A stretch of 64,000 bases of DNA from a virus, in the IMG/VR virus record IMGVR_UViG_3300020473_000017. One strand, 5' to 3'. The translations under genes were made by a program, and so were the position numbers. Under the pieces are notes generated by a model. The model had not been told where the DNA came from. It did not search any database and saw only the letters and a program-made list of their open reading frames with translations. This document shows positions 9,310 through 48,700 of this stretch, piece after piece; within the stretch, counting starts at the first letter, position 1; each line of letters opens with the position of its first letter.

Positions 9310-9478
9310 TGGGTTCCTTATGTATGTACACATTATAAGACCCCTTCCGTGGGGAAGAGGTCTTGAGTAGACACTTTATCAACTGGTTGCGTCTAGCTCT
9401 CGCTTGCCGCAACGCTTGGGGTTTTAGTTTTCGTTTGGCATCCTTCTTTGAGTGATGCTGCCAATTCGGAACTTTCAT
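9281..9478 (-). CDS. Conserved basic cyanophage hypothetical protein
   Basis: PNWQHHSKK..KRKLKPQALRQARAR motif typical of T4-like cyanophages. Confidence 0.7.
   Translation of the reverse strand: MKVPNWQHHSKKDAKRKLKPQALRQARARRNQLIKCLLKTSSPRKGSYNVYIHKEPNEPRKRITC
9320..9388 (-). promoter_or_regulatory. Stem-loop promoter element upstream of the vWA gene
   Basis: CCAGTTgataAAGTGTC, hairpin AAGACCTCTTCC-CCAC-GGAAGGGGTCTT, TATAAT, then GTACATACA; parallels the element at 5855-5925. Confidence 0.55.
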
Positions 9479-9581
9479 TGAGTTTCTCCAATGCGGTTAG
9501 CAGGTCAGGTGTTTCCTCCCACGACCATTCTTGGTTGTGCTGAGGGTTCTTCTTCTCGATTACATGTGTCCTTGTGGTCAT
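9393..9581 (-). CDS. Hypothetical protein
   Basis: MTTRTHVIEKKNPQHNQEWSWEETP; start set at ATG 9581. Confidence 0.6.
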   Translation of the reverse strand: MTTRTHVIEKKNPQHNQEWSWEETPDLLTALEKLNESSELAASLKEGCQTKTKTPSVAASES

Positions 9582-9592
9582 AGGGTACGAGC

Positions 9593-9633
9593 AATTACAT
9601 ACCATAATACACCACCTGTCAACAGTGTGTCAA
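9593..9633 (-). promoter_or_regulatory. Sigma70-type promoter with tandem TTGACA boxes
   Basis: TTGACAcactgTTGACA followed by TATATG/TGTAAT candidate -10 boxes. Confidence 0.45.
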
Positions 9634-9657
9634 GTAGCACCAGAGAAATATTTATTA

Positions 9658-9954
9658 TCATGTCTGACCTGCTGGTGTTTTAGGTGGACATTCTAGATGA
9701 ACTGTCCCTGTGATAGGTTGATGCAGATGCTCTAGAACATGTTCTAGTTTAGCATTGATCTCATCCAACTTTGCTTGTATCTCATCATGATCGTGACTAC
9801 CTGTATTAATAGTAATGTCACCTGTTGGTACAGTGGTTGTTTCTGGATACAATCCAGGACCACCATCAGATATATCAATACCAGGAATTGCTGATCCTGT
9901 ACCTGAACCTCCGTTTGGAACGAAGTTTCCGTCTATGCCGCCTGAATATGTCAT
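9658..9954 (-). CDS. Hypothetical Gly/Pro-rich protein with short His-rich coiled coil
   Basis: 98-aa ORF preceded by a late-promoter motif ATAAATA (9982-9976). Confidence 0.65.
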   Translation of the reverse strand: MTYSGGIDGNFVPNGGSGTGSAIPGIDISDGGPGLYPETTTVPTGDITINTGSHDHDEIQAKLDEINAKLEHVLEHLHQPITGTVHLECPPKTPAGQT

Positions 9955-9978
9955 ATGTTTAAAGGGTTTGGTGAATAT

Positions 9979-11694
9979 TTATTCTTCCTTAGTAATTACA
10001 GAGAAGTTTTGTTTCTTTTCTACAACTAAAGTGGAAGCAAATTTATCTTGAAGTGATTCTGTCTTATGGGATATAACAAATACATTAGTATTGTCAGAGA
10101 CAGTATGTAAGATCTTCAAAAAGTCATCAGTACCTGATACATCAAGACTACTATCAAAGATCTCATCCAGTATCAATAGATTAGTATTGGCACTGTTCTT
10201 CATCTTAGCAATAGTTCTCCATGTAAACAGGAGTGCCAGATCAATTCTCATCTTCTCTCCTTCAGAGAAGGATGCATATGAAAACTCATCCCTGAACCTT
10301 GACTTGATAGTCTCCTCAAAATTCTCATCAAGATCAAAAGAAACATAGAAATCTAGTTCCTTAAGATACCTATTAATCAATTGATTCATAACAGGTAAAA
10401 ACTTTTTAATGATAACTGATTTGATACCAGTATCACGTAACATGTTTGTTACAGTATCATAGTTATCACGGGTCTTTCTATTAGTGGATAATTCATTCTC
10501 CACTTTCATACCAACACTTGCTAACTCTTGTAACTTCTCCTTCTCTCTACTAAGGTTATTAGTGTCAGCAGAATTTATCTTATCCTCTATCTTTTTAATC
10601 TCTTTCTTCTTCCACTGTATCTCCTTATTACAAGCACTGATCTTCTGTTGTACTTGCATAAGATCTGATAATACAATCTGCTTATCAGATACTTGTTGGA
10701 GAATACTTTCTAATTTTTTCTGTAATGTAATTGATGCCTTATCAATCTCATCTATAGACGCAGTAATTTCAGCTTTCTTATCAGCTCTAACGTCTTCGGT
10801 GATGATGGACTTGCAAGTCGGACAACTATCATTCTTATCAAAAAACTTAAACTCTTTTTTGAATGCTTTCTTCTTATCAACAAACCTCGATTCATATAAA
10901 CGAAGTTGTGCCAATTCATCTTCTACATTCCCATAACTATCTAGGCTCTTATCATGAGATGCAGAAACCTCCAATCCTTCTGCAACATCAGTCATAAGAA
11001 AAGTTATTTCATCCTCTAATGATTCTATATCTTTTTTACGTCTAGCATTATTTGCAGATGATTGTTCTTTAAGATCAGAAATAAACCTTTGCTGCATCTC
11101 AACCTTCTGCTTTACCAATTCATATTGATAATCACATTCCCTAAGAGTTTCTTTAACTCCTTTAACCTTTTCTTTAAGAAGAGTATTCATGGTAGAGAAG
11201 ATACGAATATCTAAAAGATCTTCAATAACTTCTCTACGGTTAGGGGGTGTAAGTTGCATGAATGGAACAAAGCATGATGATCCTAAGATCACCACCTGAG
11301 TAAATGATTTATAATTCAACCTCAGTACACTTTGCTCCAGATGTTTTTGCTGCTCTTGTGCAGATGCTTCTTGATTAAGCATCTCACCATTAAGATAGAT
11401 TTCAAACACATTAGGCTTTGCACCTCTGCGTATCATATAGTCACGAGAACCAATACTAAATTCTATCTCAACAAGCAGATCCCTCTCGTTGACAGCATTG
11501 ACCAATTGGCCTTTTGTTATCTTACGAAAGGGTTTGTTGAACAAAGCAAAGCACATGGCATCCAAGAATGTGGATTTACCAGCACCGTTTGTACCAACTA
11601 TCAGGGTAGCAGGACTTGCATCAAGTCTTATCTCACTAAAAACATTACCAGTTGAAAGAAAATTCTTCCATCTGACAGACTTAAAAAGAATCAT
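9979..11694 (-). CDS. gp46: Recombination endonuclease subunit gp46 (Rad50/SbcC-like ATPase)
   Basis: WKNFLSTGN, GTNGAGKST, zinc hook CPTC, FSEGEKMRIDLAL, LILDEIFDSSLD. Confidence 0.97.
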   Translation of the reverse strand: MILFKSVRWKNFLSTGNVFSEIRLDASPATLIVGTNGAGKSTFLDAMCFALFNKPFRKITKGQLVNAVNERDLLVEIEFSIGSRDYMIRRGAKPNVFEIYLNGEMLNQEASAQEQQKHLEQSVLRLNYKSFTQVVILGSSCFVPFMQLTPPNRREVIEDLLDIRIFSTMNTLLKEKVKGVKETLRECDYQYELVKQKVEMQQRFISDLKEQSSANNARRKKDIESLEDEITFLMTDVAEGLEVSASHDKSLDSYGNVEDELAQLRLYESRFVDKKKAFKKEFKFFDKNDSCPTCKSIITEDVRADKKAEITASIDEIDKASITLQKKLESILQQVSDKQIVLSDLMQVQQKISACNKEIQWKKKEIKKIEDKINSADTNNLSREKEKLQELASVGMKVENELSTNRKTRDNYDTVTNMLRDTGIKSVIIKKFLPVMNQLINRYLKELDFYVSFDLDENFEETIKSRFRDEFSYASFSEGEKMRIDLALLFTWRTIAKMKNSANTNLLILDEIFDSSLDVSGTDDFLKILHTVSDNTNVFVISHKTESLQDKFASTLVVEKKQNFSVITKEE

Positions 11695-37274: not shown

Positions 37275-38477
37275 TTATCCTTCAGTTGTATTTATACTGA
37301 AAAAATTGGATAGTCTTTTTTCCATTTCATAGAAGAATTCATCATCCCATAGGAAATTAGCAATAATTCTCATAGACTTATTCCTAGTCTTTGTTAGAAC
37401 TATTCCTGATTCTTGTAATTCCTCTTGACTTAAATCCCTATGTACATCTAAAGAAAGTAATAAACCACTAAGTCTATACCCTGTAATATAATTTTTATTC
37501 AATAAACTTTCAGAAACAGATCTGAGTTTATCTTCTATACCCTGACATTTACTAAACAAATTCTCACGTACGATAATATTATTAACTGTATTCATAGCAG
37601 ATATACCTGTCATGGTAGGTTGCCAAGTATGTCCCCAAGTCCAATCCTTTTTCTTTATTACATCCCCAACCTTCTTATTAGCAACCGCACAACCAAGAGG
37701 TGTGTATCCAGCAGTTAAAGATTTACCCAATGCAGATATATCAGGTTGTACTCCATACCTCTTATATCCATGGTAATCTCCACCCTTACCCCAACATACT
37801 GCACAATCATCACTCATCATAAGGATATCATTTTCATCACATATATGACGAATCATTCTCCACCAAGATTTTGACCATGGAATACCACCATTAATCCATG
37901 GTAAAGTTTCCATAACTATACATCCAATCTTTCTTCCACAACAATTATATGACTTAATAACAAGATCCAAATACTTAAGTGCTTTCTCCTCAGACCTTAC
38001 CTGATCCTTTTCATCTTTCCATATAGGAGTTGGCACCTTCTTAAGTCTCTTATTTACACTATCAACCTCACTCATATCTCTAGTAAGAAATGTTGTTCCA
38101 TGATAGCTTGGTGTAAAGGTAACAATATAGTTACTTTGATTACCCCAATATTGATCATTCATTTTAATTGCAGCTTCAACTGCAGATGATCCAGATATAG
38201 CCCAAGACAAAACATCCCAGTTGCCAGTAGAGCAAACTAGGTCTGTCATCTTTATACACAATTCAGAAGTCTCTCCTCGATTACCTCTGATAAAATTAAC
38301 TTCAGGTGCCAAAGCACCCATTACTTCTTTATTACCGTATCCTAATATATACGCGGAATTACCAGACTGAAGATCTATCAGTCTAGTTCCATCAGAATAT
38401 TCTATCCAATATCTATCTGTCTTAGTTACAACTTTATCTAAGGGTTCTTTACTCCAAGCCCTAAGTTCATAACCCAT
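37275..38477 (-). CDS. Class-III PLP-dependent aminotransferase (BioA/GabT fold)
   Basis: DG.RLIDL.SG, LGY, SGSSAVEAAIK, SYHGTT, PDI...GKSLTAGY.PLG (PLP lysine), GHT. Confidence 0.85.
   Translation of the reverse strand: MGYELRAWSKEPLDKVVTKTDRYWIEYSDGTRLIDLQSGNSAYILGYGNKEVMGALAPEVNFIRGNRGETSELCIKMTDLVCSTGNWDVLSWAISGSSAVEAAIKMNDQYWGNQSNYIVTFTPSYHGTTFLTRDMSEVDSVNKRLKKVPTPIWKDEKDQVRSEEKALKYLDLVIKSYNCCGRKIGCIVMETLPWINGGIPWSKSWWRMIRHICDENDILMMSDDCAVCWGKGGDYHGYKRYGVQPDISALGKSLTAGYTPLGCAVANKKVGDVIKKKDWTWGHTWQPTMTGISAMNTVNNIIVRENLFSKCQGIEDKLRSVSESLLNKNYITGYRLSGLLLSLDVHRDLSQEELQESGIVLTKTRNKSMRIIANFLWDDEFFYEMEKRLSNFFSINTTEG
37289..37296 (-). promoter_or_regulatory. T4-type late promoter
   Basis: Exact TATAAATA upstream of the S8 gene. 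Confidence 0.85.
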
Positions 38478-38787
38478 CTGGTAAATATTTCTTAAGTTCT
38501 CCCTCAGTAGGTGCAGCAGTCATTCTCTCAACTGGCTTACTGAATTTTAAATCATGTGCTGAATCAAATTGGAACTTAGTTCTTAAATGAGTTCTATCTC
38601 GTTCTACAATAAGATGATAGTAATGCCCATAAACATTTTCACTAAATCCAATTGCTATAATTGGTCGGGTATCATAAACATCCCCGACCTTCCATGGACA
38701 AGTTTCCTCAGTTCCATCAAAAGGAATATAGAACTGAGTTGATTCTACGTGTTCTTTTTGTCGAGCTGCACTACTCTTTACTATCAT
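38467..38787 (-). CDS. Hypothetical protein
   Basis: 106-aa ORF overlapping both neighbours. Confidence 0.65.
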   Translation of the reverse strand: MIVKSSAARQKEHVESTQFYIPFDGTEETCPWKVGDVYDTRPIIAIGFSENVYGHYYHLIVERDRTHLRTKFQFDSAHDLKFSKPVERMTAAPTEGELKKYLPDGL

Positions 38788-38950
38788 CTGTCTCTGGTTC
38801 TTTCTGTGTTAATTGAAGTGCTTCAATAGCTCCTTCCAATCTCAACACCTGTTCGTTACGGGATTTGAGTTGCTTTTCAAGTTCCACTACAGTTGCTTTC
38901 TGCTCTTTCAATTGATTGGTGAACTCTCCCACCATCTTTTCAATATCCAT
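38771..38950 (-). CDS. 59-aa coiled-coil protein (absent from ORF track)
   Basis: Manual translation MDIEKMVGEFTNQLKEQKATVVELEKQLKSRNEQVLRLEGAIEALQLTQKEPETDDSKE; ATAAATA at 38978-38972 upstream. Confidence 0.75.
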   Translation of the reverse strand: MDIEKMVGEFTNQLKEQKATVVELEKQLKSRNEQVLRLEGAIEALQLTQKEPETDDSKE

Positions 38951-38988
38951 GTTTTAAAATTATAAGTGTATTATTTATTATAGCACAA

Positions 38989-39459
38989 TTACTCCAGATC
39001 GGGCAACGCTACACCATTCATAACCAATGCTGGATCTTCAGTTACAACTTCTTTCCTATAGTTTGTTGCCACTTGAGCTGTCATATACTTTAACTTGTGA
39101 GAATCAATAGCTGGCAAATTCAATGCTGTTATATTGGCTTCATAAGTATCAAGATCAATAACTCCTAGTTTTAAGTTCTTTACATTGTCATAACATGCAG
39201 TTGCATCACTTATCAACTGTGTGTCAGTAGCACCTGATTCTAGTGTAGAAATAATTCCTGCCTGTGCATCTTTCTTCACCTTCAAGATATACTGAGCATA
39301 AGTATGCCACTTCTCTCTTCTTGGTTTCAGCCTAGGTAAAGAAGTTTTTCCTTCCAATCTAAGACCTTTAATATAATCCTCTTCTGCTGTTGTCAGAGTT
39401 AAGGAACTATCACTACGCATCTGTAGGATGAGTAGATATTCTGTAGCAGATAAATTCAT
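38989..39459 (-). CDS. Hypothetical helical protein, possible fibre-tip chaperone
   Basis: 156-aa ORF coupled (ATGA overlap) to the 301-aa tip-like gene. Confidence 0.65.
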   Translation of the reverse strand: MNLSATEYLLILQMRSDSSLTLTTAEEDYIKGLRLEGKTSLPRLKPRREKWHTYAQYILKVKKDAQAGIISTLESGATDTQLISDATACYDNVKNLKLGVIDLDTYEANITALNLPAIDSHKLKYMTAQVATNYRKEVVTEDPALVMNGVALPDLE

Positions 39460-40361
39460 TGTACCCAGATCTCCGCACGCATGGTTCTATTTACACCAGT
39501 GGTTCCTTGACAACAGTAGATATGATCTCCTGCAGAGGAGTCTGTTCTACGATGACCTATACCACCACAAACATCATTGGAACTTTCTCCACCTTCGTTG
39601 TTCCAACCAAATCCCCAACGCATAGCATTGTTACTTGATCCAGTATAGTTAAATCCATACCATTGGAATCCATTCTGGTTTGTGAATCCAGATCCAACGT
39701 ACATACTTTCTCCGCGTGGGTTACTTGATATACGATAGTTACTCTGGAATCTTTGTAAGCATGTCTGTCCTATACCACCTTGCTTCCAAGTCCAACCATT
39801 ATAACCAACTGATGATTGACCACCATTGTTTATATCAGGGAAAACTGCACCGAGTGTTTGTGCAACAAAATAATTGAATACATGGTTCTTATGATCACCA
39901 TCGTTTCTATTCAACTGAGATGTTTCATTATATGTGTTTGTAGCTGTCCAATAGTTAGTATCATAATGGAAGGTGCTTCCTCTAGTACACTTCCATGCTA
40001 ACATCCAACCACCACCACCTAAGTGGTTTACATCCATCATACAATATACTTGCTTCGCACCTACACTAGGTAATAAGATCCAGTATACACCATCTGTAGC
40101 TTGTGGATTAACTTGTAATATTGATGATGCACTTGTGGCCGCTTTTTCTGCAGAAGAACCATCTGGTTCTGATCCACCACCGATGTTCATCCACTCAGAT
40201 CCATTCCAAGTTTGTAGTTTCTCAGAAGTACTATTATAAATCGTTGCACCAACGTCCAAACCACTTGTGGGTCTACCGCCTTCTGAATAACTAGGAAAGT
40301 TTAAATGTGCGGAGGCATCTACGGTACTGGAATTGAGAGTGCTACAGTTAAGAGTTCCCAT
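39456..40361 (-). CDS. Fibre-tip-like protein with fibrinogen-related domain
   Basis: N-terminal RP...G.TIYN.T..KLQ.WNG.EW fibre motif; DGVYWI...QVYC.MD...GGGWML fibrinogen-like motif. Confidence 0.7.
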   Translation of the reverse strand: MGTLNCSTLNSSTVDASAHLNFPSYSEGGRPTSGLDVGATIYNSTSEKLQTWNGSEWMNIGGGSEPDGSSAEKAATSASSILQVNPQATDGVYWILLPSVGAKQVYCMMDVNHLGGGGWMLAWKCTRGSTFHYDTNYWTATNTYNETSQLNRNDGDHKNHVFNYFVAQTLGAVFPDINNGGQSSVGYNGWTWKQGGIGQTCLQRFQSNYRISSNPRGESMYVGSGFTNQNGFQWYGFNYTGSSNNAMRWGFGWNNEGGESSNDVCGGIGHRRTDSSAGDHIYCCQGTTGVNRTMRAEIWVQ

Positions 40362-40384
40362 TATTTCCTATGATAAGTCCTAAT

Positions 40385-42118
40385 CTATTTAGACAGGACT
40401 AAAACGTATAAACCGTTCCACCACATTTTATCATCCTCTTGATCATTGAGAAGTTCCCTTTCATATAAAATATTTAACTTTTGCTTCTCAACCCAACCTT
40501 TAGTGATAGCAACATTCTGTTCTACATTTGCATCATCAACTACTAAAGTAAAAACATTTTCAGTAAACCCTAGCATATTGTTAAAAAATTCTATCATTTT
40601 ATGCTCGGCATTATCCCCATCATAAAAGATTATATTAACATCCTCTTTAAAATCTTTCTTACCTAACTGGGATGAATCACCATTGAGAACTTGTATATCA
40701 AAATCTAAGGTGTCTGTAGTTACATTCGTCTGTAAATTTTTGACAAAAGTAGTAACACTAACGTCTTCTAATGGTAAAGTAATATCCTTTCTAGCTGGTT
40801 GTAAATTTGGTTCTGACCAATTATCATTTGCATATGCTGCAACCATATCATTATTCTGAATAGCAGCACAGAATGTAGATCCAGCAAACACACCCACCTC
40901 AAGATAGACCGCACCTTCCTGGGAGCAGAGATTATTTAAGAAATGTCTTACTCTAGCTGACGATAATCCAGGTACATTATAATACGCATCAGGATCTTTA
41001 GGATCATAAGCCTTATGATTTGATAGGTACTTACCAGAATTAATAAATGCTTCTATACAAGTTTCTACTTGTGGATGTACAATCAGATCAGCTTTCTTCA
41101 TATGAGATTCTACTACTTTCTCACAGTAGTTACAATCCCAACAATCAAACTTACATGTTTTTATTTTCTGCCTCCACATCCTAACAGGAGAATCTTTTAT
41201 TTCCAATTGAGCATTATATTTAATATACTCTGGAAACATATATTCTTCTTTAGCTGCCCATCTTTTGATGAGATCCATACTCTCTTGAAGTCTCATCATA
41301 CTTTCCCTACCATGTAGTTTAAAAGTATCAATACCCAACTCAAGAAATTCTAACCAGTCATCTCTCCATGGTGGAAGATTTGCTGCTTTTAAATCATACT
41401 CTGGATGTTGTACATCCCAAGTAGAACATGATACTCTACTAATAGGACTAGCAAAGAATATAGGATCCTTTGGTCCTCTTGTACTATTATATTGATAATG
41501 CTCTGGCATGATAGGACAACCACCCCAACATGTTTCATTGACTAGCATTGATAACATGACAGGTTTACCTAAGAACTTACAGTAATCCTTTGCCTTCTGA
41601 ATACGAATTAATTGATCACGATCTCTCATGAGATCCCGATCAAGATTTATATAATGAAATCCAGCCTCTGCTAATGCTACTATCTCATTGGGTCTTGTAA
41701 CCTCTCTAAGAATAGTATTCTTAATAAACAGATCTGGAAATGCTTGTTGAATCTGACCAGTAGATACCCATGATGTATGTGGTAGTGTTACCACTCTAAC
41801 ACCAGCATTATAAATGGGAGCAAAATTTTCAATCCAAAGATCTAAATTCTTTTGATCTGGTCTCACCCATATATTATTAAATGTAGCTGATAATGGGATA
41901 TTAGATTTATTTGAAATATAACATGCAGATTGTATTAAAGCTTGATTCTCAGCAAAACAATCCCCCATAGCATCCTGATCGAATGGAGGGATTCTGCAAG
42001 TGAAATATAGATCTAATATGTATTCTTTATATTCTTCTAAGAACGGAAGAAATGTATTGACTACAAAGTGCTCACTCAGCTTCGGGTTTATCGGTAGACT
42101 GAAGACTCTTTTGTTCAT
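40385..42118 (-). CDS. U32-family (UbiU/RlhA-like) Fe-S protein fused to a class I SAM methyltransferase
   Basis: INLDRDL, NETCWGGCP...EH, CSTW, GIDTFKLHGRE (cf. U32 LKIEGR), CKFDCWDCNYC; C-terminal YLEVGVFAGST, IFYDGD, VVDD, WWNG. Confidence 0.75.
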   Translation of the reverse strand: MNKRVFSLPINPKLSEHFVVNTFLPFLEEYKEYILDLYFTCRIPPFDQDAMGDCFAENQALIQSACYISNKSNIPLSATFNNIWVRPDQKNLDLWIENFAPIYNAGVRVVTLPHTSWVSTGQIQQAFPDLFIKNTILREVTRPNEIVALAEAGFHYINLDRDLMRDRDQLIRIQKAKDYCKFLGKPVMLSMLVNETCWGGCPIMPEHYQYNSTRGPKDPIFFASPISRVSCSTWDVQHPEYDLKAANLPPWRDDWLEFLELGIDTFKLHGRESMMRLQESMDLIKRWAAKEEYMFPEYIKYNAQLEIKDSPVRMWRQKIKTCKFDCWDCNYCEKVVESHMKKADLIVHPQVETCIEAFINSGKYLSNHKAYDPKDPDAYYNVPGLSSARVRHFLNNLCSQEGAVYLEVGVFAGSTFCAAIQNNDMVAAYANDNWSEPNLQPARKDITLPLEDVSVTTFVKNLQTNVTTDTLDFDIQVLNGDSSQLGKKDFKEDVNIIFYDGDNAEHKMIEFFNNMLGFTENVFTLVVDDANVEQNVAITKGWVEKQKLNILYERELLNDQEDDKMWWNGLYVLVLSK

Positions 42119-42848
42119 TACTATGTTCCGCTGTCAGTTGATTGAATAATTCTAAGTTGAGGTTATCTTCAATGTTATCGAAGGTTGGGAACCTAGGTGG
42201 TTCTCCATCTGTTAACATCTTATCAATTTGAGGTTTCATACTATTCTGAACCTTAGCAATACCTGCATTAAGCATTCCTGAATATTGCATTGCTATACTG
42301 ACAGCATAGATCTGATCCTCCTCTCTCATCATAGCAATAGAATCCATATTACCAATACCTATTCTACCATTAGCATATATGTCAATAGCAGCCTGTTTAC
42401 CCATACGAGCAATCCAGTATTTTCTTTCTTCCTCTTCAGTATAGTCAGCAGCTTCTCCCATCTCTTCAATGGACTTAAAATTCTTACGAACATAATTCAT
42501 AAAAGGTTCCAGTTCATGATCATACTGACGTATGCTCACATCAAACTTACCTAAGTCTAATTTATATTCAGCAATATCTAATTCGATGAGCTCCCTTTCA
42601 AAAGGATCATCTTCTTTTTCTAATTTCTCTTCGAGTTGACGTATCTTTACAGTCTTTCTCTTTCTATCTAATTTTACTTTCTTCCTTTCATGGTTCCTAC
42701 TTTCAATCTCAATTAGAGCTTGACGTAGTTGACGAAAATCAGTGACATGTGAATTGATAACAAAATTTTTAATTTGCTCTCCAGTCATGCCATAGTGCAT
42801 AGAGGTTTCTACCCAATCCTCTATATTCTGGGCGGTAATCTCAGTCAT
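42072..42848 (-). CDS. Coiled-coil hypothetical protein
   Basis: FRQLRQALIEIESR, long heptad region, EEERKYWIARMGKQAAIDI...GRIG.GN. Confidence 0.7.
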   Translation of the reverse strand: MTEITAQNIEDWVETSMHYGMTGEQIKNFVINSHVTDFRQLRQALIEIESRNHERKKVKLDRKRKTVKIRQLEEKLEKEDDPFERELIELDIAEYKLDLGKFDVSIRQYDHELEPFMNYVRKNFKSIEEMGEAADYTEEEERKYWIARMGKQAAIDIYANGRIGIGNMDSIAMMREEDQIYAVSIAMQYSGMLNAGIAKVQNSMKPQIDKMLTDGEPPRFPTFDNIEDNLNLELFNQLTAEHSNEQKSLQSTDKPEAE

Positions 42849-42860
42849 AGTATAAAATAA

Positions 42861-43634
42861 TTAAACTTTTAATCCAGGCTCCACGTTGTCTACGGTTTGT
42901 ACTCCATTGAGACCCTCATGAGTCTGACCAAGTTCCTCTGCTTGTTTGTAAGGTACTGGCATACCCATGTACTTTTGATAAAGTACGTTTAGTTCTTTTA
43001 TTGTAGCACAAGATTTGAATTCTTGCTTGATCTTCAGCATATCTGCGTAAAGAGCTACTACTTTTTCTTTGAAATCTGCTTGACCTGCTTTAATTGCAGC
43101 AGCGACTTCTTCTTTTGTTGAACCTTTAACAGCTACAATACTATCTATAACAGGTGTTTCACCATCCAAATTGTTCGCTTCTCTGATCTGAGATTCCCAA
43201 AGAAACTGTTCAATCTTAGATTCTTCTGCCTTGAGTGTAAGAAACTTACGATCATATTGATCTTCAATAATAAGTTTTGCTGCTAACTTCATAAATGCTA
43301 TGGCAGCATCAAATCTTTCTTGTGGTAGTTCAACTTTAGTTTTACCATCACCAACTTCTTCAAGTAAATACTCATCATCTTCAGATAAAGGGTCTTCATC
43401 TGTAACTTTAACTACAGCACGAATTTCTCCAAAGTGCTTGGTTCCCCACCTACCTAGATCTTCACTTATCTCTTCATATGATTTTGGTAAAGTATATAAA
43501 TCTCTAACCCATTTTTCTTCTACGGAAAATACGCAGATACCAAACATATTCCAGATGATATTGGCTGTTGACAACCAATCAATATCATCACTTCTTCTTC
43601 CTATGAAGTACTTTAGTTTAATTTCTTCGCTCAT
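42861..43634 (-). CDS. Tail-fibre-assembly-like protein
   Basis: C-terminal E...W..Q..EA......TP.I..I...KG....E...I motif resembling fibre-associated assembly proteins. Confidence 0.55.
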   Translation of the reverse strand: MSEEIKLKYFIGRRSDDIDWLSTANIIWNMFGICVFSVEEKWVRDLYTLPKSYEEISEDLGRWGTKHFGEIRAVVKVTDEDPLSEDDEYLLEEVGDGKTKVELPQERFDAAIAFMKLAAKLIIEDQYDRKFLTLKAEESKIEQFLWESQIREANNLDGETPVIDSIVAVKGSTKEEVAAAIKAGQADFKEKVVALYADMLKIKQEFKSCATIKELNVLYQKYMGMPVPYKQAEELGQTHEGLNGVQTVDNVEPGLKV

Positions 43635-43635
43635 G

Positions 43636-44802
43636 TTAGAATCCTGTGTATCCGTACATTAAGGTACCATATTCGGAACCAGCAGCAGATGCTGTTCCTG
43701 GAGGACCACTCCTATCCATTCGACTATCTCTTTGGAAACTATGACTTGCATAAGTGAAGAGATAACCATTGTTATTCTGGGAACCATCATACTGACCACA
43801 AATGAAACCATATTCATTTCCAGTATGGAATGTTTCCTCACCAGTAGTTATGCCATTTTTACTGACAGATGCTCTACGACCACCATTGTAAGAATCTCTT
43901 ACATGCCAGTCACTAGAAGTACGATAACCACCACCAGTGTTCCAGTACCCAAAACCATTTCTACTTGAGAGTGTTTTGTTAGTACCGTCAGTTCCTGGTC
44001 CGTCTGTCCAACCATGGAATACTTCGGTAGAGAAGTTGAAACTTTGTTTACTACCAGTAGCAATCCAACCTACAGTAGCACCTTGTCCACCAGCAGGGTT
44101 GTTCTGTGTACCATTGGGATGGGTTGTACTAAACTGATTTGCAGCAGTTGCTAAATTATATTTCACCAAGTTGCTACTATTACCACCACCATGTACATAT
44201 GCATAAGTAAAATCTTTCTTCATGCAGGTAGCTCTATGTTTTGTTCCTGCCATAGAGGTTGCTGCACCAGTATTGGTTTCTGTTACCATACTGATAGATG
44301 ATACTAGGTCAGTAGTTGCGTTCCAACTATCTCCAGTACAGAATATGTAACTCTTAAATGCTGTGTTCCATGCAGAATCAATATAAGCACCTGACCATGT
44401 AGTTAAATCTCCTAAGTTAGTCTGGGTAAATGTTGAGTGTACAAGTCTATTAACGTTCTTGTAAGAGGTTCCTCCACGATATCCACACTGACTAAATCCT
44501 CTAGTTATATCAAATCCTGCTTTATATGCTGCCTGATTCGCACCTCCTGCAGTTCCTTCTCCACCTTCATCCCAATAAGCCTGACCACTACTACCACCAG
44601 ATCTCAGAACAGCACCAATGTTAGTTACATCCTGAGTTGGTAGAGTTACAAATGGTTGTCCATTTTGTAATAAAGTACCAGTAAAATCTATATTTCCAGC
44701 AACAGATACATTACCAGTAAAAGAAGCACCACCCGTCGGAAAACTTACAGCTCCCGATTCGGCTCTATTTGTTACTTCATCAACTTTAATTCTAGATGCC
44801 AT
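43636..44802 (-). CDS. Fibre-tip-like protein with Kelch-like beta-propeller
   Basis: MASRIKVDEV adaptor-like start, GNIDFTG.LLQNG.PF fibre motif, about six GY/GG-containing blade repeats. Confidence 0.65.
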   Translation of the reverse strand: MASRIKVDEVTNRAESGAVSFPTGGASFTGNVSVAGNIDFTGTLLQNGQPFVTLPTQDVTNIGAVLRSGGSSGQAYWDEGGEGTAGGANQAAYKAGFDITRGFSQCGYRGGTSYKNVNRLVHSTFTQTNLGDLTTWSGAYIDSAWNTAFKSYIFCTGDSWNATTDLVSSISMVTETNTGAATSMAGTKHRATCMKKDFTYAYVHGGGNSSNLVKYNLATAANQFSTTHPNGTQNNPAGGQGATVGWIATGSKQSFNFSTEVFHGWTDGPGTDGTNKTLSSRNGFGYWNTGGGYRTSSDWHVRDSYNGGRRASVSKNGITTGEETFHTGNEYGFICGQYDGSQNNNGYLFTYASHSFQRDSRMDRSGPPGTASAAGSEYGTLMYGYTGF

Positions 44803-44814
44803 GTCGTTTCCGTA

Positions 44815-45777
44815 TTAATGTAACCAAAGGGTCCAAGCGTTTGTATAACGATACTCACCATAAGCATCTGTTGTTCCCCAAATCACCTGACAAGGTGCTG
44901 AAGAACTTCCTCTCTCCGTACCAAAAGATAGAGGTCCAATATTTTGAGAGTGAGAGTTATTACCACTAGTCAAGTTACCTGGATCAATAATAAGCATATT
45001 GCTACTAAAGTTTCCAGATGTATTACCATCAAAAATAACAGCCCAATAACCACAACCATTGTTCTGGTATGGTGAATTATTTACAATACCACTAAAGTTC
45101 TGAGTAAATGCACAGAAGTCAGCAGTATGAAAACCACCAGAAACATAACTTGCTTGGTAATGAACTTTAGTCAATTTGGGTAAACTACATCTAATTGTAG
45201 ATAGTGAGTTACCACCAGAGTGAGTTTGGTTTCTACCAATTCTATGGGTACCTTGTCCAATAGTATCATTATTAGTACTGGTATCTGAGTTACTATTCCA
45301 AGCAGGGATAATCGTACTTGGAGTTCCATATTCAGTATGTGCTATAGCAGAGTTATTTGCACCGAAGAATGCAGCATCATATTTAATCCACCCATTATCT
45401 CCAGTACCAAAACGATCAGTTGCATCATAATCAAATTCAAATGCTCCACTTCCAGGTATTGTTACCCATACAGTACCAGATGTTTGGTTACCTTGTTCGT
45501 ATGCATCCTTACCAGAAAATGCAGGATTACTTGAAGACCCACCACGGTTTCCTCCACCGCAGTTTGCCCATCTATCTCCAGTCCAAACTTCCAAAGATGC
45601 TGTATCCGTGTTGAGAATCAACTCACCGACATAAGGGTTTGCTGGTCTACTACCTTGAGCATAATTTGGTAATCTATATCTTCCTGAAGTACAGTGCAAT
45701 TCATGTCCTGCAGGAATTTCAATCTGATTATTATAAGTTGCAATTCCTTGCAAATTGTGTACTGATAATGTGCTCAT
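44815..45777 (-). CDS. Fibre-tip-like protein (putative receptor-binding domain)
   Basis: MSTLSVHNLQG start, RPANP..GELI.NT...LEVWTG..W fibre motif, Gly/Asn/aromatic-rich C-domain. Confidence 0.65.
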   Translation of the reverse strand: MSTLSVHNLQGIATYNNQIEIPAGHELHCTSGRYRLPNYAQGSRPANPYVGELILNTDTASLEVWTGDRWANCGGGNRGGSSSNPAFSGKDAYEQGNQTSGTVWVTIPGSGAFEFDYDATDRFGTGDNGWIKYDAAFFGANNSAIAHTEYGTPSTIIPAWNSNSDTSTNNDTIGQGTHRIGRNQTHSGGNSLSTIRCSLPKLTKVHYQASYVSGGFHTADFCAFTQNFSGIVNNSPYQNNGCGYWAVIFDGNTSGNFSSNMLIIDPGNLTSGNNSHSQNIGPLSFGTERGSSSAPCQVIWGTTDAYGEYRYTNAWTLWLH

Positions 45778-45780
45778 AGT

Positions 45781-48700
45781 TTAAACAATCGTCCAGGATC
45801 CACCGTTATCTATAGTAACTGTGCTACCGTTATTTATAGTCAATGGCCCCGCGCTCATGCAGCAATCTCCATTAGCAACAGTGATGCTTTCTCCAACAGA
45901 ATTTCTATTACGCTTGAATACCCCGTGAGAATCGATCCATTGCTTGTCGCCACCTGCTCTTAGAACTGTGCTCTTCTGTCCAGAAGATAGTCCTTCAGAT
46001 GCATTAAGGTTTAATCCACTATCTCCAGTAACTTGTACTCTATATGTTGACTGAATAGAGTTGCCACCTGGTTCGTGGAAATGACATCTACCACCCTGAT
46101 CCCATGATGCAAATGTTTGGTCACTATCATTTCTAAAGAAGAAGTCATCACCAGTCTTAATATAAGTATGACTATTATTAGCAAAGTAGAATCTTTGCTG
46201 ACCACCATCATCTGATATCCAAGTGTTAACTACACCCTGTAGATAAGGTAGGTTAAGTGCACTATAACCATCAAGTAAGTCTGCATTCAGGTTAGTACAT
46301 ACAGTAGTAGAACTAACACTAAGTGGTGCAGTACCAGTAGCAACAGTAGACTTAAGTTGATTGTCAGTTTCAATAGCACCACCAACATTCAATCTTGAAC
46401 CAGCTCCAGTACCAGCTGCCCTGTTAATAAACCATCTACCAGTAGCTTGATAGATCGCAAGGTTACAAGATCCAGTAGTAGCTTGAGCATTGATAGTTGC
46501 TGCAGCACCTGGATTTGCAAATCCTTTAAGAACAAAATATGATACGTTAGCATCATCTGCACCCATGACCCATGCATTATCATTATCTTTATCATCCCAT
46601 GTAATAGAAGGAGATCCACCACTCGTACCAAGTAATATACGACCATCATTAGCAGCACCAGATTCAAAGGTTGCCCATGCAGCAAGACCATCTTGATCCT
46701 TAGTGACATGTAAAGGTGATCCAGGATTAGATTGTCCAACACCTAAACGTGCATTACGGAAGTATACACCATTGTATGATAAGTGAGTTCCATTCCAACC
46801 AAAGTCATTAGTGTCAGTACCAAAGCGGATGTAACCAACAGTACCACTGTTTCTACCCTTGATGGATAGAGAGTTAGTTGCTGCCTTACCTAGGTCAACA
46901 CCATTAGCACCAGCAAGTTGTAAAACTCCAGTACCAGTGTTATTGAATGTACCTTGGTCACCAGTTAGATCGTTAACTGTAAGGTGTCCAGAAGCGTCTC
47001 TACGAGCGATTGTATTAGCATTTGCTGCAGTAGACTGAGTGAAACCATCTAAGTAATGAGCGTCTAGCTGTGAGGAACTACCATCGTTACCTGCGTGCCA
47101 CACGGTGTTACCGTTGACGGTGATATCACCAGTATTAATTCTTAAAGTACCATTTCCGTTATTGGTATTACCACCAGAAATGTAGAACTGAACATCGTAA
47201 TCAGGAGCTTGTCCCGAAGAACGGAAGTCAACTGTTGGAGTTGTAGAAACAGATCCCTTACCAATTTGTAGTTTAGCACCTGCAGCAGCATCACGTAATC
47301 CAATAACAGTAGTAGAACCGCTAGAGATTGGGTTGGATGATGTTACAGTCCACTTAGTACCTGGGTTAGGACCAACAACATATATGTTTGCGTTAGTATT
47401 ATTACCAACAAATGCGATTGTACCTGTTACTAATGAATAAATCTCACCAGATGTATGAGTAAGTTCACTAACACCATTAGCATCAACTACGATAGAACCA
47501 ATGTTGTTTGTTGCACCTACATCAGAGTAGATAGTGTAAGTACCACTTGGGTTAATGTTACCATTAGCACCAGTCCTACAATGGAAATCTGGAATGTATA
47601 ATGTGTACTTCAGACCACTATCATTAAGATAGAAGTTCTCGAAGACCATCTTGTCTTGACCAAGAACTTCAGGTAAGAACATATCACCCATAGGTGTATT
47701 GATTCCACCCTTAGAATTACCGAAGTTATAACCTGACTGATACCATAGACCTTGTGATCCATCTAGTTTATCAGCATCTAGGCCACTCGCAGCACCATCA
47801 TTAGCACCTGACCAAATCTTAGACCAGTTACCATATACAGTGTTACCTCCACTGTTACCTCTAATCCAAAGGTTATCATTATCAGTGTAACCGATTTGAA
47901 TAGCAGCAGAACCTGTTGCTTCCCTTCTGTAGGTCATGATACCGTGTGTGGTACCACCGTCAGTTAAACCAGTTGCACTATTATTTCTTAATGCAGCAGA
48001 AATACCGTTTGCTGCCTGTGCAGGTGATGGGTTAGAAGTTAGAGATGCAGTCTCGTTGAATACTCTGTTTGCTGTGTCAGCAGTACCAGAGATAGAAATA
48101 TTATATGTTGTATTTGCAAGACGTGCGGGATCAAGTGTACCAGCATTCAAACTACCAGCGTTCTGATAGAATGCACCGTGGTTACCATCCAGTTTATCAG
48201 CATTAAGTTCTGATCCTGGTCCTTGGTCAATAGTTACCTGACCATCATTATCAATTACGAAACCACCTTCTGATTGGTTACCAACTGCTTGGTTAGCAAC
48301 ATCCTTACGGAAACGGAATACACCGTAGTTACCATAGACAGTAGCGGCAGGAGTAAGGTTATCACCCTTCCTCATGTCAATTTCTATGTTACCATATACA
48401 CGGTTAATAGTACCCTTAACAGCAGTTAAGATTGCTCCATTACCACCACCAAATTCTGCAGGTATTGTTATACTAAATCCAGCAGTATATCCTGTACCAG
48501 AGTCAGTTACAGTAGCAGATGTAATAACACCACTTGTAACTGTATAAGTTGCTCTTGCAACACCACTATCAGTAACACTTACGTTACCACCTTCTAATGG
48601 TAAGTTCTGATAAGTACCGTCTGTGTATGAAGTACCACCGTTAGTTATAGTGATGGTGTCAATATATGTACTGTCTGTGACAGATCCATCAATAACAATA

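Follow-up and report, generated by a model that had tools for sequence, protein, structure and literature searches.

A fibre-tip domain, two helical proteins and a U32-like enzyme form what looks like an undescribed late functional block of marine cyanophages

Virus record IMGVR_UViG_3300020473_000017 of IMG/VR, whose 64,000 nucleotides (nt) were analysed as one stretch (the window), carries a block of four consecutive late genes that, judged by comparative sequence analysis, looks like one undescribed functional system. The block encodes a 388-amino-acid (aa) protein with a fibre-tip domain, two acidic helical proteins of 257 and 258 aa, and a 577-aa enzyme in which a U32-like domain is fused to a methyltransferase domain. 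Its source is a T4-like cyanomyovirus with Prochlorococcus phage P-HM2 as closest relative (78% DNA identity in the region), in which the gene order from the giant fibre gene to gp13/gp14 is the same except for a 400-aa gene. An earlier note, made from the letters of the window, had proposed that genes for receptor-binding tips travel here with dedicated tailoring enzymes. Our analysis keeps the core of that proposal and removes several of its parts. The tip domain, the two helical proteins and the U32-like enzyme have been retained together repeatedly and independently, through a move from phage to bacterial chromosome, through shuffling of gene order and through fusion or fission of the methyltransferase, which is strong evidence for one functional system.

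The test of co-inheritance that the earlier note had suggested for these four genes gave a clearly positive answer, from collinearity, from record counts, from a bacterial chromosome and from a second phage lineage. We compared every window protein by tblastn with 80 IMG/VR loci around homologues of the 577-aa protein and with annotated phages. Every locus with enough upstream DNA shows the order 388, 257, 258, 577, even where the enzyme is 53–56% and the 257-aa protein ~30% identical, and both flanks of the block vary among loci. The block was found always within fibre clusters. Among 50,697 sequenced phage records, the U32-like domain occurs in 126 (77 Synechococcus, 38 ‘Cyanophage’, 8 Prochlorococcus and 3 Ralstonia) and the 258-aa protein in the same phages, with an identical count and host breakdown; the methyltransferase domain is present in 123, the cyanophage records, and the tip domain in 117, all from cyanophages. 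With gp13 (~460 cyanophage records) as the denominator, about one in four sequenced marine T4-like cyanophages has the block. Between distant cyanophages, the U32-like domain is its best-conserved part: loci L107–L109 are 59–62% identical to the window there, as against 33–38% in the methyltransferase, 31–38% in the 258-aa protein, 26–32% in the 257-aa protein and 25–33% in the tip domain.

The four parts also occur together outside cyanophages. A profile scan of genome contigs matched a single Leptospirales metagenome-assembled genome (MAG), in which homologues of all four lie side by side on a 6.4-Mb contig with no other phage genes nearby. Over its last ~300 residues, the 1511-aa protein encoded by the first gene of this island (DUF6519, DUF2341, Laminin_G_3) is a homologue of the 388-aa tip domain, according to phrog_1417 (E = 1.6e-8) and to hhalign (90% probability, 273 columns). 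The second encodes a 245-aa homologue of the 258-aa protein (E = 7e-20; the MAG also gave a match at E = 2.8e-66), and the third a 229-aa protein (phrog_1604, E = 2.5e-12; hhalign 67%) that is the sole genome-wide match of the 257-aa profile; a gene for a 357-aa U32-like protein and one for a DUF401/CitMHS-type permease follow. In the Ralstonia jumbo phage RP12, genes for a 258-like protein (E = 1.6e-24), a U32-like protein and a permease stand in a row. A narrow tip-domain profile found nothing in RP12 or in the Leptospirales genome, whereas the broader PHROG model and hhalign did match. The ~350-aa gene that follows the U32-like gene in both had been considered as a second U32 subunit, a candidate rejected on its identification as the DUF401 permease.

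A fuller module is present in loci L113–L116, in the order two or three tip-domain paralogues, 258-like gene, 257-like gene, radical S-adenosylmethionine (SAM) enzyme, U32-like gene, separate methyltransferase gene and a gene for a 315-aa protein. The two or three paralogues of the 388-aa tip domain are found in L113–L115, with 257-like and 258-like counterparts present too; the methyltransferase of L113–L116 has the same domain as the fusion enzyme, in an adjacent gene of its own; and a DUF401 permease ends the module in L115 and L116. The gene before the tips encodes a lactococcal receptor-binding-protein N-terminal domain. A family search with the radical SAM enzyme of these loci gave matches far below family cut-offs and no subfamily placement, and searches for related loci with P0262 and P0285 found none. 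Among cyanophages, a permease gene lies close to the gene of the fusion enzyme (T4-GC354, hereafter GC354) in loci MbCM1 and L084. In metaG-MbCM1 (L003), it occupies positions 9466–10503, is annotated ‘hypothetical protein Glov_0511’ and encodes a DUF401-type permease homologous to those of RP12, the Leptospirales MAG and L115/L116. The window has no radical SAM gene and no permease, and therefore holds a reduced form of the wider module.

The 577-aa protein is a two-domain fusion of U32-like and methyltransferase parts, as the earlier note had read it. Its family is large (1,868 clusters at 90% identity; 1,251 representatives at E ≤ 0.001), and the two halves also exist separately, as proteins of ~340 and ~220 aa. 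An AlphaFold2 model of the N-terminal domain is a TIM barrel with a predicted local distance difference test score (pLDDT) of 91, and two independent aligners agree that the closest solved structure is the U32 peptidase Mk0906 (5d88). Mk0906 is the top Foldseek match (E = 1.5e-7), and VIA-align superposes 227 of 247 residues on 5d88 with a root-mean-square deviation of 3.3 and Z = 16.5; the next matches, generic barrels, reach Z ≤ 12.7. ESM Atlas clusters near the domain carry PF01136. A profile built from 30 U32-like homologues matches bacterial proteins with E values of 1e-13 to 1e-20, two of which exceed the PF01136 cut-off (40.7 and 35.3 bits versus 22.4), and the alignment with bacterial U32 proteins spans the barrel and both cysteine motifs, which the two groups have in common. 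PF01136 itself matches one of the 30 homologues only (E = 0.033), and sequence and profile searches of the PDB found no relative of the domain.

Seven cysteines (C197, C201, C231, C322, C326, C329 and C332) are invariant across the 30 homologues, and E195, E206 and H207 nearly so. The U32 motif of the window, E195-x-C197-x3-C201, is likewise invariant, and its spacing differs from the canonical E-x7-C-x6-C, which in RlhA is formed by E161, C169 and C176 (PMC5727448). We file the domain as U32-like, in a divergent subfamily and not as canonical, because C-x3-C stands in place of C-x6-C. From sequence and model, we assign it as a divergent, Cys-rich relative of U32 Fe–S enzymes, with predicted cluster binding. 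Its relatives occur in other settings as well. Homologue P0248 (L085), on a short contig, is fused to DUF7483 instead of a methyltransferase. Distant bacterial Cys-rich members (L097, L091 and L102) adjoin radical SAM enzymes resembling the STM4012 and STM4011 families, and one distant bacterial member adjoins 3-dehydroquinate synthase II, a neighbour of interest because U32 enzymes depend on prephenate.

Motif and family matches place the C-terminal domain as a probable Methyltransf_24-type class-I SAM O-methyltransferase. The SAM-binding motif I (LEVGVFAGST) and the acidic motif (FYDGDN) are both present in the window, and G45, G49 and D136 are invariant in the homologue alignment. Homologues exceed the PF13578 (Methyltransf_24) cut-off with 43.1 and 100.7 bits, and one close homologue is tagged PF13578. 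Relatives score on the Methyltransf_24, TylF and RMNT_CmcI (rhamnosyl O-methyltransferase) models, and the clade is nearer Methyltransf_24 and sugar O-methyltransferases than Methyltransf_3. The best PDB profile match, a weak one (E = 1.6e-4), is the YrrM/TrmR structure 5zw3. The domain has an isoelectric point (pI) of 4.5.

The 388-aa protein combines a fibre-like N-terminus with a strongly conserved, Gly- and aromatic-rich, all-beta C-terminal domain. Its AlphaFold2 model is all-beta at a pLDDT of only 49. The Kelch-like label that it had been given could not be confirmed, as Kelch_4 matches one of 16 homologues (E = 0.039) and a PDB profile search with the tip domain found no relative. The 258-aa protein has an invariant core, YW..R.GKQAA...G....GN. 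Sequence and profile searches of the PDB with the 257-aa and 258-aa proteins returned no relatives, family searches assigned neither an enzyme signature, and an ESM Atlas search with the 258-aa protein was negative. For the 257-aa family, ESM Atlas gave a weak link to HI1402_helical, a ‘phage tail protein’ helical family, and we propose the 257-aa protein as a candidate adaptor or chaperone. The two helical proteins were also considered as paralogues of each other, a relationship that is not detectable (hhalign 12%). Complex prediction for the U32-like domain with the 258-aa protein returned a score of 0.00, which gives no verdict and counts neither for nor against binding.

All open reading frames (ORFs) that the earlier note had listed are present at their claimed sizes, all on the minus strand (Table 1), and the genes are indeed tightly packed directly downstream of the giant fibre gene, which encodes 4421 aa. 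The 3′ end of the 258-aa gene lies over the start of the 577-aa gene. Residues 1–50 of the enzyme are conserved in stand-alone homologues (F6 almost without exception) and in the model make up the initial beta strand and helix of the barrel (pLDDT >90); because these residues are conserved and part of the barrel, the true start of GC354 lies within the 3′ end of the 258-aa gene, which gives the two genes a 47-nt overlap. Older GC354 annotations (PSSM4_035; phrog_1458, which begins at residue 51) start ~45–50 codons late (window 42072–42118; L002 7001–7127).

Late expression, inferred in the earlier note from promoter motifs, is supported by transcriptomics of P-HM2, in which the orthologues PHM2_097 to PHM2_103 are all classed as late genes (supplement of PMC5082946). 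The window contains ten ATAAATA sites (9649, 9976, 15375, 20388, 21347, 28482, 37289, 38972, 45831 and 59618), all ten on the coding (minus) strand, as against ~21 sites expected from shuffles; this strand bias and depletion fit a T4-type late promoter that is selected against elsewhere. In the region of the block, the motif precedes the 320-aa gene (45831), the 59-aa gene (38972) and the 1719-aa gene (37289). The late-promoter motif that had been placed between the 577-aa and 301-aa genes was not found there. A sigma-70 promoter scan gave matches at chance level only. The module proteins are all acidic (pI 4.5–6.1).

Table 1. Features of the block and its surroundings in the window. T4-GC numbers follow Sullivan et al. 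2010.
Feature	Position	Strand	Remarks
Late-promoter-like motif TATAAATA	45831..45838	-	~50 nt upstream of the 320-aa gene; predicted start of a late unit from the 320-aa to the 156-aa gene
320-aa tip A, T4-GC514, phrog_4831	44815..45777	-	Variable flanking fibre-tip-like protein
388-aa tip-domain protein, T4-GC351, phrog_1417	43636..44802	-	Core member 1
257-aa acidic helical protein, T4-GC352, phrog_1604	42861..43634	-	Core member 2
258-aa acidic helical protein, T4-GC353, phrog_1409	42072..42848	-	Core member 3
577-aa fusion enzyme, T4-GC354	40385..42118	-	Two-domain protein
Predicted U32-like Fe–S TIM-barrel domain, residues 1 to ~345 of the 577-aa protein	41084..42118	-	Core member 4
C197-x3-C201 codons, motif NETCWGGCP...EH	41516..41530	-	Variant of the U32 cysteine motif
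Second cysteine cluster, C322-x3-C326-x2-C329-x2-C332 codons	41123..41155	-	At the junction of the two domains
Predicted class-I SAM methyltransferase domain, Methyltransf_24 type, residues ~375–577	40385..40996	-	Part of the 577-aa protein
301-aa tip C, T4-GC585	39456..40361	-	Fibrinogen-like GGGWT domain; swappable cassette
156-aa partner of tip C, T4-GC586	38989..39459	-	Candidate tip-specific assembly factor
Late-promoter-like motif ATAAATA	38972..38978	-	In the 38-nt gap before the 59-aa gene; predicted start of a unit of 59 aa, 106 aa and aminotransferase genes
59-aa conserved small protein, T4-GC517, phrog_580	38771..38950	-	
106-aa conserved small protein, T4-GC518, phrog_26228	38467..38787	-	
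400-aa class-III (omega-transaminase / BioA-like) aminotransferase	37275..38477	-	Between GC518 and GC519 (1719 aa)

The U32 proteins RlhA, TrhP and UbiU/V are Fe–S-dependent, prephenate-dependent aromatic-ring hydroxylation factors (PMC5727448, PMC6599085, PMC10990095). This support of ring hydroxylation by U32 proteins, together with the fused O-methyltransferase, suggests hydroxylate-then-methylate chemistry for the phage enzyme. Late in infection, the U32-like domain would oxidize or hydroxylate an aromatic position, by analogy with the characterized enzymes in an O2-independent, prephenate-dependent step, and the fused methyltransferase would then O-methylate the hydroxylated product. As substrate we propose the tip-domain protein or a group bound to it, and the helical proteins would deliver the tip domain to the enzyme or act as chaperones of that domain. 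Our choice of this target is tentative; we make it because the tip-domain protein is the only constant non-enzyme partner and has multiple paralogues beside the enzymes, and because all parts are acidic and late. On a more specific reading, which we offer with greater reserve, phages and at least one bacterium may possess machinery dedicated to the maturation of a receptor-binding-type beta domain. The U32-like enzyme (with the radical SAM enzyme in the fuller versions) and the O-methyltransferase would there install an oxidized, methylated aromatic residue or cross-link, with the two helical adaptor proteins guiding maturation of the tip protein.

Operon-encoded cofactor maturation provides a likeness for such a system. 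For QhpD/QhpG (quinohemoprotein amine dehydrogenase) and PqqE/PqqD (pyrroloquinoline quinone), the target protein is encoded next to a radical SAM enzyme, a ring hydroxylase, small adaptors and a transporter, and the fuller module of L113–L116 has a gene make-up of this kind; it differs in that there is no sequence relationship and that the target here would be, as we propose, a phage fibre-tip domain. For chemical modification of a phage tail, PMC13445384 reports MepM-dependent methylation of a mycobacteriophage tail protein by the host, a precedent for such methylation being needed for adsorption. The enzyme in that case is host-encoded and of another family, whereas the enzyme here is phage-encoded and fused to a U32-like domain.

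Several observations weigh against a tip-modifying system of this kind. We know of no U32 enzyme that acts on a protein. The Pfam search with PF01136 gave no match for the window protein, which also stays below the gathering cut-off of Methyltransf_24 (20.4 bits versus 26.3). The distant U32-like genes of L088, L091 and L092 have no recognizable tip or helper genes, and some stand beside a radical SAM gene. In P-SSM3 (L108, NC_021559.1, 8001–9688), the GC354 orthologue is unannotated and has a frame break within the methyltransferase domain: frame 3 stays open to 9305 and the reading resumes in frame 2 from 9422, with ~40 residues lost and the U32-like domain intact in a 447-aa ORF. The break reflects either genuine damage to the gene of a cultured phage or an artefact of sequencing. 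In S-RIM14 (L107, KX349302.1, 5239–11000), the block tolerates an insertion: ~6 kb of auxiliary genes, comprising four hypothetical proteins of ~215–240 aa, plastocyanin petE, 6-phosphogluconate dehydrogenase (gnd) and small ORFs, separate GC353 from GC354, and all four block genes are kept. Two further points, the relatives of the methyltransferase and the linkage to a permease, bear on the nature of the substrate. The nearest methyltransferase relatives outside cyanophages match sugar O-methyltransferase models and are fused to glycosyltransferase-like domains (RXYLT1_C or Glyco_trans_1_2), and a gene for a DUF401/CitMHS-type permease accompanies the U32-like gene in four lineages, a recurrence that suggests a small-molecule substrate or co-substrate.

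These two points lead to the view that the enzymes make or tailor a small aromatic, quinone-like or sugar compound, with the tip binding or carrying the product or the host surface being changed. We regard this, the main rival reading, in which the tip would use the product instead of being the substrate, as rather unlikely. It would account for the permease beside the U32-like gene in RP12, the Leptospirales MAG, L115/L116, MbCM1 and L084, for the radical SAM enzyme that adjoins that gene and for the TylF and RMNT_CmcI scores of the methyltransferase relatives. UbiU/UbiV, which with UbiT are O2-independent, prephenate-dependent ubiquinone ring hydroxylases and bind [4Fe-4S] through four cysteines, act on a small aromatic ring (PMC10990095), and they resemble the phage system in belonging to the U32 superfamily, in depending on a non-enzyme partner and in the sequence of ring hydroxylation and O-methylation within the Ubi pathway. 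The phage block differs from them in its cysteine spacing and has no quinone pathway context, and UbiT was unrelated to the 257-aa and 258-aa proteins in any search run here. The window and most cyanophages, moreover, have no permease, radical SAM or other biosynthetic gene, so that the fused enzyme would need a host metabolite, and the constant retention of two helical non-enzyme proteins and a tip-domain protein would be left unexplained. A role in RNA modification, with the fibre context incidental, appears very improbable. The enzyme would then be a phage version of TrhP and TrmR, which convert U34 of tRNA to 5-hydroxyuridine (ho5U) and on to 5-methoxyuridine (mo5U), or of RlhA, which forms 5-hydroxycytidine (ho5C) in rRNA. 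TrhP (YegQ; YrrN/YrrO in B. subtilis) with TrmR (YrrM) does combine a U32-superfamily Fe–S protein with a class-I SAM O-methyltransferase of the same clan. Pairings of this kind are the only characterized ones of U32 proteins with an O-methyltransferase of this clan and come nearest in chemistry among characterized systems, the genes are paired in Bacillus (PMC6599085), and 5zw3, as given above, heads the PDB profile matches. RlhA, which makes ho5C2501 in 23S rRNA, needs C580 and C611 near its C-terminus besides two essential U32-motif cysteines (PMC5727448), and the phage domain has the same two-site layout, with C231 and C322/C326/C329/C332 on the C-terminal side. In the phage protein, however, the two activities are fused, C-x3-C replaces C-x6-C, an extra four-cysteine cluster is present and the methyltransferase is Methyltransf_24-like and nearer to sugar O-methyltransferases, not of the Methyltransf_3 type. 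The Pfam search found no U32 C-terminal or other RNA-binding domain, and DUF3656 and the RNA-binding region of RlhA, like its gene context, are missing. The phage proteins are acidic, the gene is expressed late alongside structural genes, the window has no tRNA genes, and the enzyme always travels with the tip-domain and two helical proteins, in four lineages of which one is a bacterial chromosome.

That the U32-like barrel, with cysteines that bind metal, and the helical proteins act without chemistry, as tip chaperones like T4 gp38 or gp57A, seems improbable to us. In T4-type systems (gp37/gp38, gp57A; Tfa proteins), small assembly genes dedicated to the tip stand after its gene, and the whole set is swapped as a cassette. 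The pair of 301-aa and 156-aa genes fits this pattern, as possibly do the 257-aa and 258-aa proteins, and the constant placement in fibre clusters, the lack of an enzyme signature in the helical proteins and the weak HI1402_helical link would be expected of chaperones. Known fibre chaperones, however, have no linked Fe–S enzyme or methyltransferase, and no homology to them was detected; the most conserved part of the block is the U32-like domain, with identities well above those of the tip, helical and methyltransferase parts, in which all homologues keep the seven cysteines and nearly all keep E195, E206 and H207; and a methyltransferase with intact SAM-binding motifs is always present, joined in the fuller modules by a radical SAM enzyme. 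The earlier note went further than the tip-modifying system that we favour, uniting hydroxylase, methyltransferase and aminotransferase in one pathway that travels with tips A, B and C. All these genes do share one strand and a span of 8.6 kb that contains late-promoter-like motifs, and nine related loci carry the aminotransferase at the same site. The distribution data nevertheless largely refute this version, which we consider extremely improbable. P-HM2 lacks the aminotransferase, as do 16 of the 25 loci that span the GC518–GC519 insertion site (9 have it), and the presence of the gene is independent of the tip C variant. The sequenced phage collection contains no close relative of it and no cyanophage that carries one. 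ATAAATA precedes the 59-aa gene and is missing between the 577-aa and 301-aa genes, which puts the aminotransferase in a predicted late unit separate from that of the fusion enzyme, and its 41–51% identical relatives in other large phages lie in replication modules, between nrdA/nrdB and RNase H or DNA ligase. The aminotransferase thus fails as a third enzyme of the pathway; it is an accessory mobile metabolic gene unrelated to the tip–enzyme module, and we remove it from the hypothesis.

Literature searches found no paper on U32 enzymes in phages or on the 577-aa family, and none for the locus tags. The present analysis newly contributes the bacterial island with all four parts, the fuller module that includes a radical SAM enzyme and a permease, the co-occurrence counts over the whole collection and the exclusion of the aminotransferase. 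The carriers are among the most abundant ocean viruses, and the enzyme family comprises more than 1,800 metagenomic protein clusters. If the tip is the substrate, host recognition would depend on a chemical step invisible to sequence-based prediction of host range, U32 chemistry would extend from RNA and quinones to proteins, with a first U32 protein substrate, and the system would be the first phage-encoded enzymatic tailoring of a fibre tip. Were the product a small molecule instead, it would represent a new late-stage metabolic function of phages tied to the adsorption apparatus. The question is directly testable, because P-HM2 is cultured and has an ortholog of every core gene.

The 400-aa protein is, as had been stated, a class-III aminotransferase (PF00202, 153.5 bits versus a cut-off of 30.5), and the pyridoxal phosphate lysine is present, the lysine in LGKSL aligning with the active-site lysine of 3hmu. 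None of the named class-III NCBIfam equivalogs (BioA, ArgD and others) passed, the best being bioA with 141.5 bits at a cut-off of 405; the protein thus fits no named subfamily. A sugar aminotransferase was ruled out by its membership of class III (omega-transaminase type). The phage relatives with a conserved place beside nrdA/nrdB come from other large T4-like, non-cyanophage contigs (L104–L106 and two further contigs), and this nrd-linked family looks like an uncharacterized phage metabolic gene in its own right.

The genes to either side of the block vary. The fibrinogen-like label of the 301-aa protein held, with a GGGWT_bact match (NF040941) at residues 77–121 of 38.7 bits over a cut-off of 30, and the N-terminal ~105 aa of the 320-aa protein are homologous to the 301-aa protein (E = 9e-12). 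Family searches with the 156-aa protein gave no match. In many loci, the 320-aa gene is replaced or diverged (31–45% identity). Downstream, the alternatives are the 301-aa and 156-aa pair, a ~31% identical 301-like gene accompanied by as much as 5 kb of further genes, gp13 no more than 1 kb away, or denV (P-SSM4). A ~87% identical variant of the 301-aa gene is always accompanied by the 156-aa gene, which co-occurs only with that variant. Locus comparison thus shows tip A, and the pair of tip C and its 156-aa partner, which had been counted as fixed members of the cassette, to be host-range cassettes that flank the module and can be exchanged. Between GC354 and the 59-aa gene lies a hypervariable slot (window 38951–40384; L005–L056) with 0.9 to ~5 kb of differing genes, a pattern typical of swappable receptor-binding cassettes.

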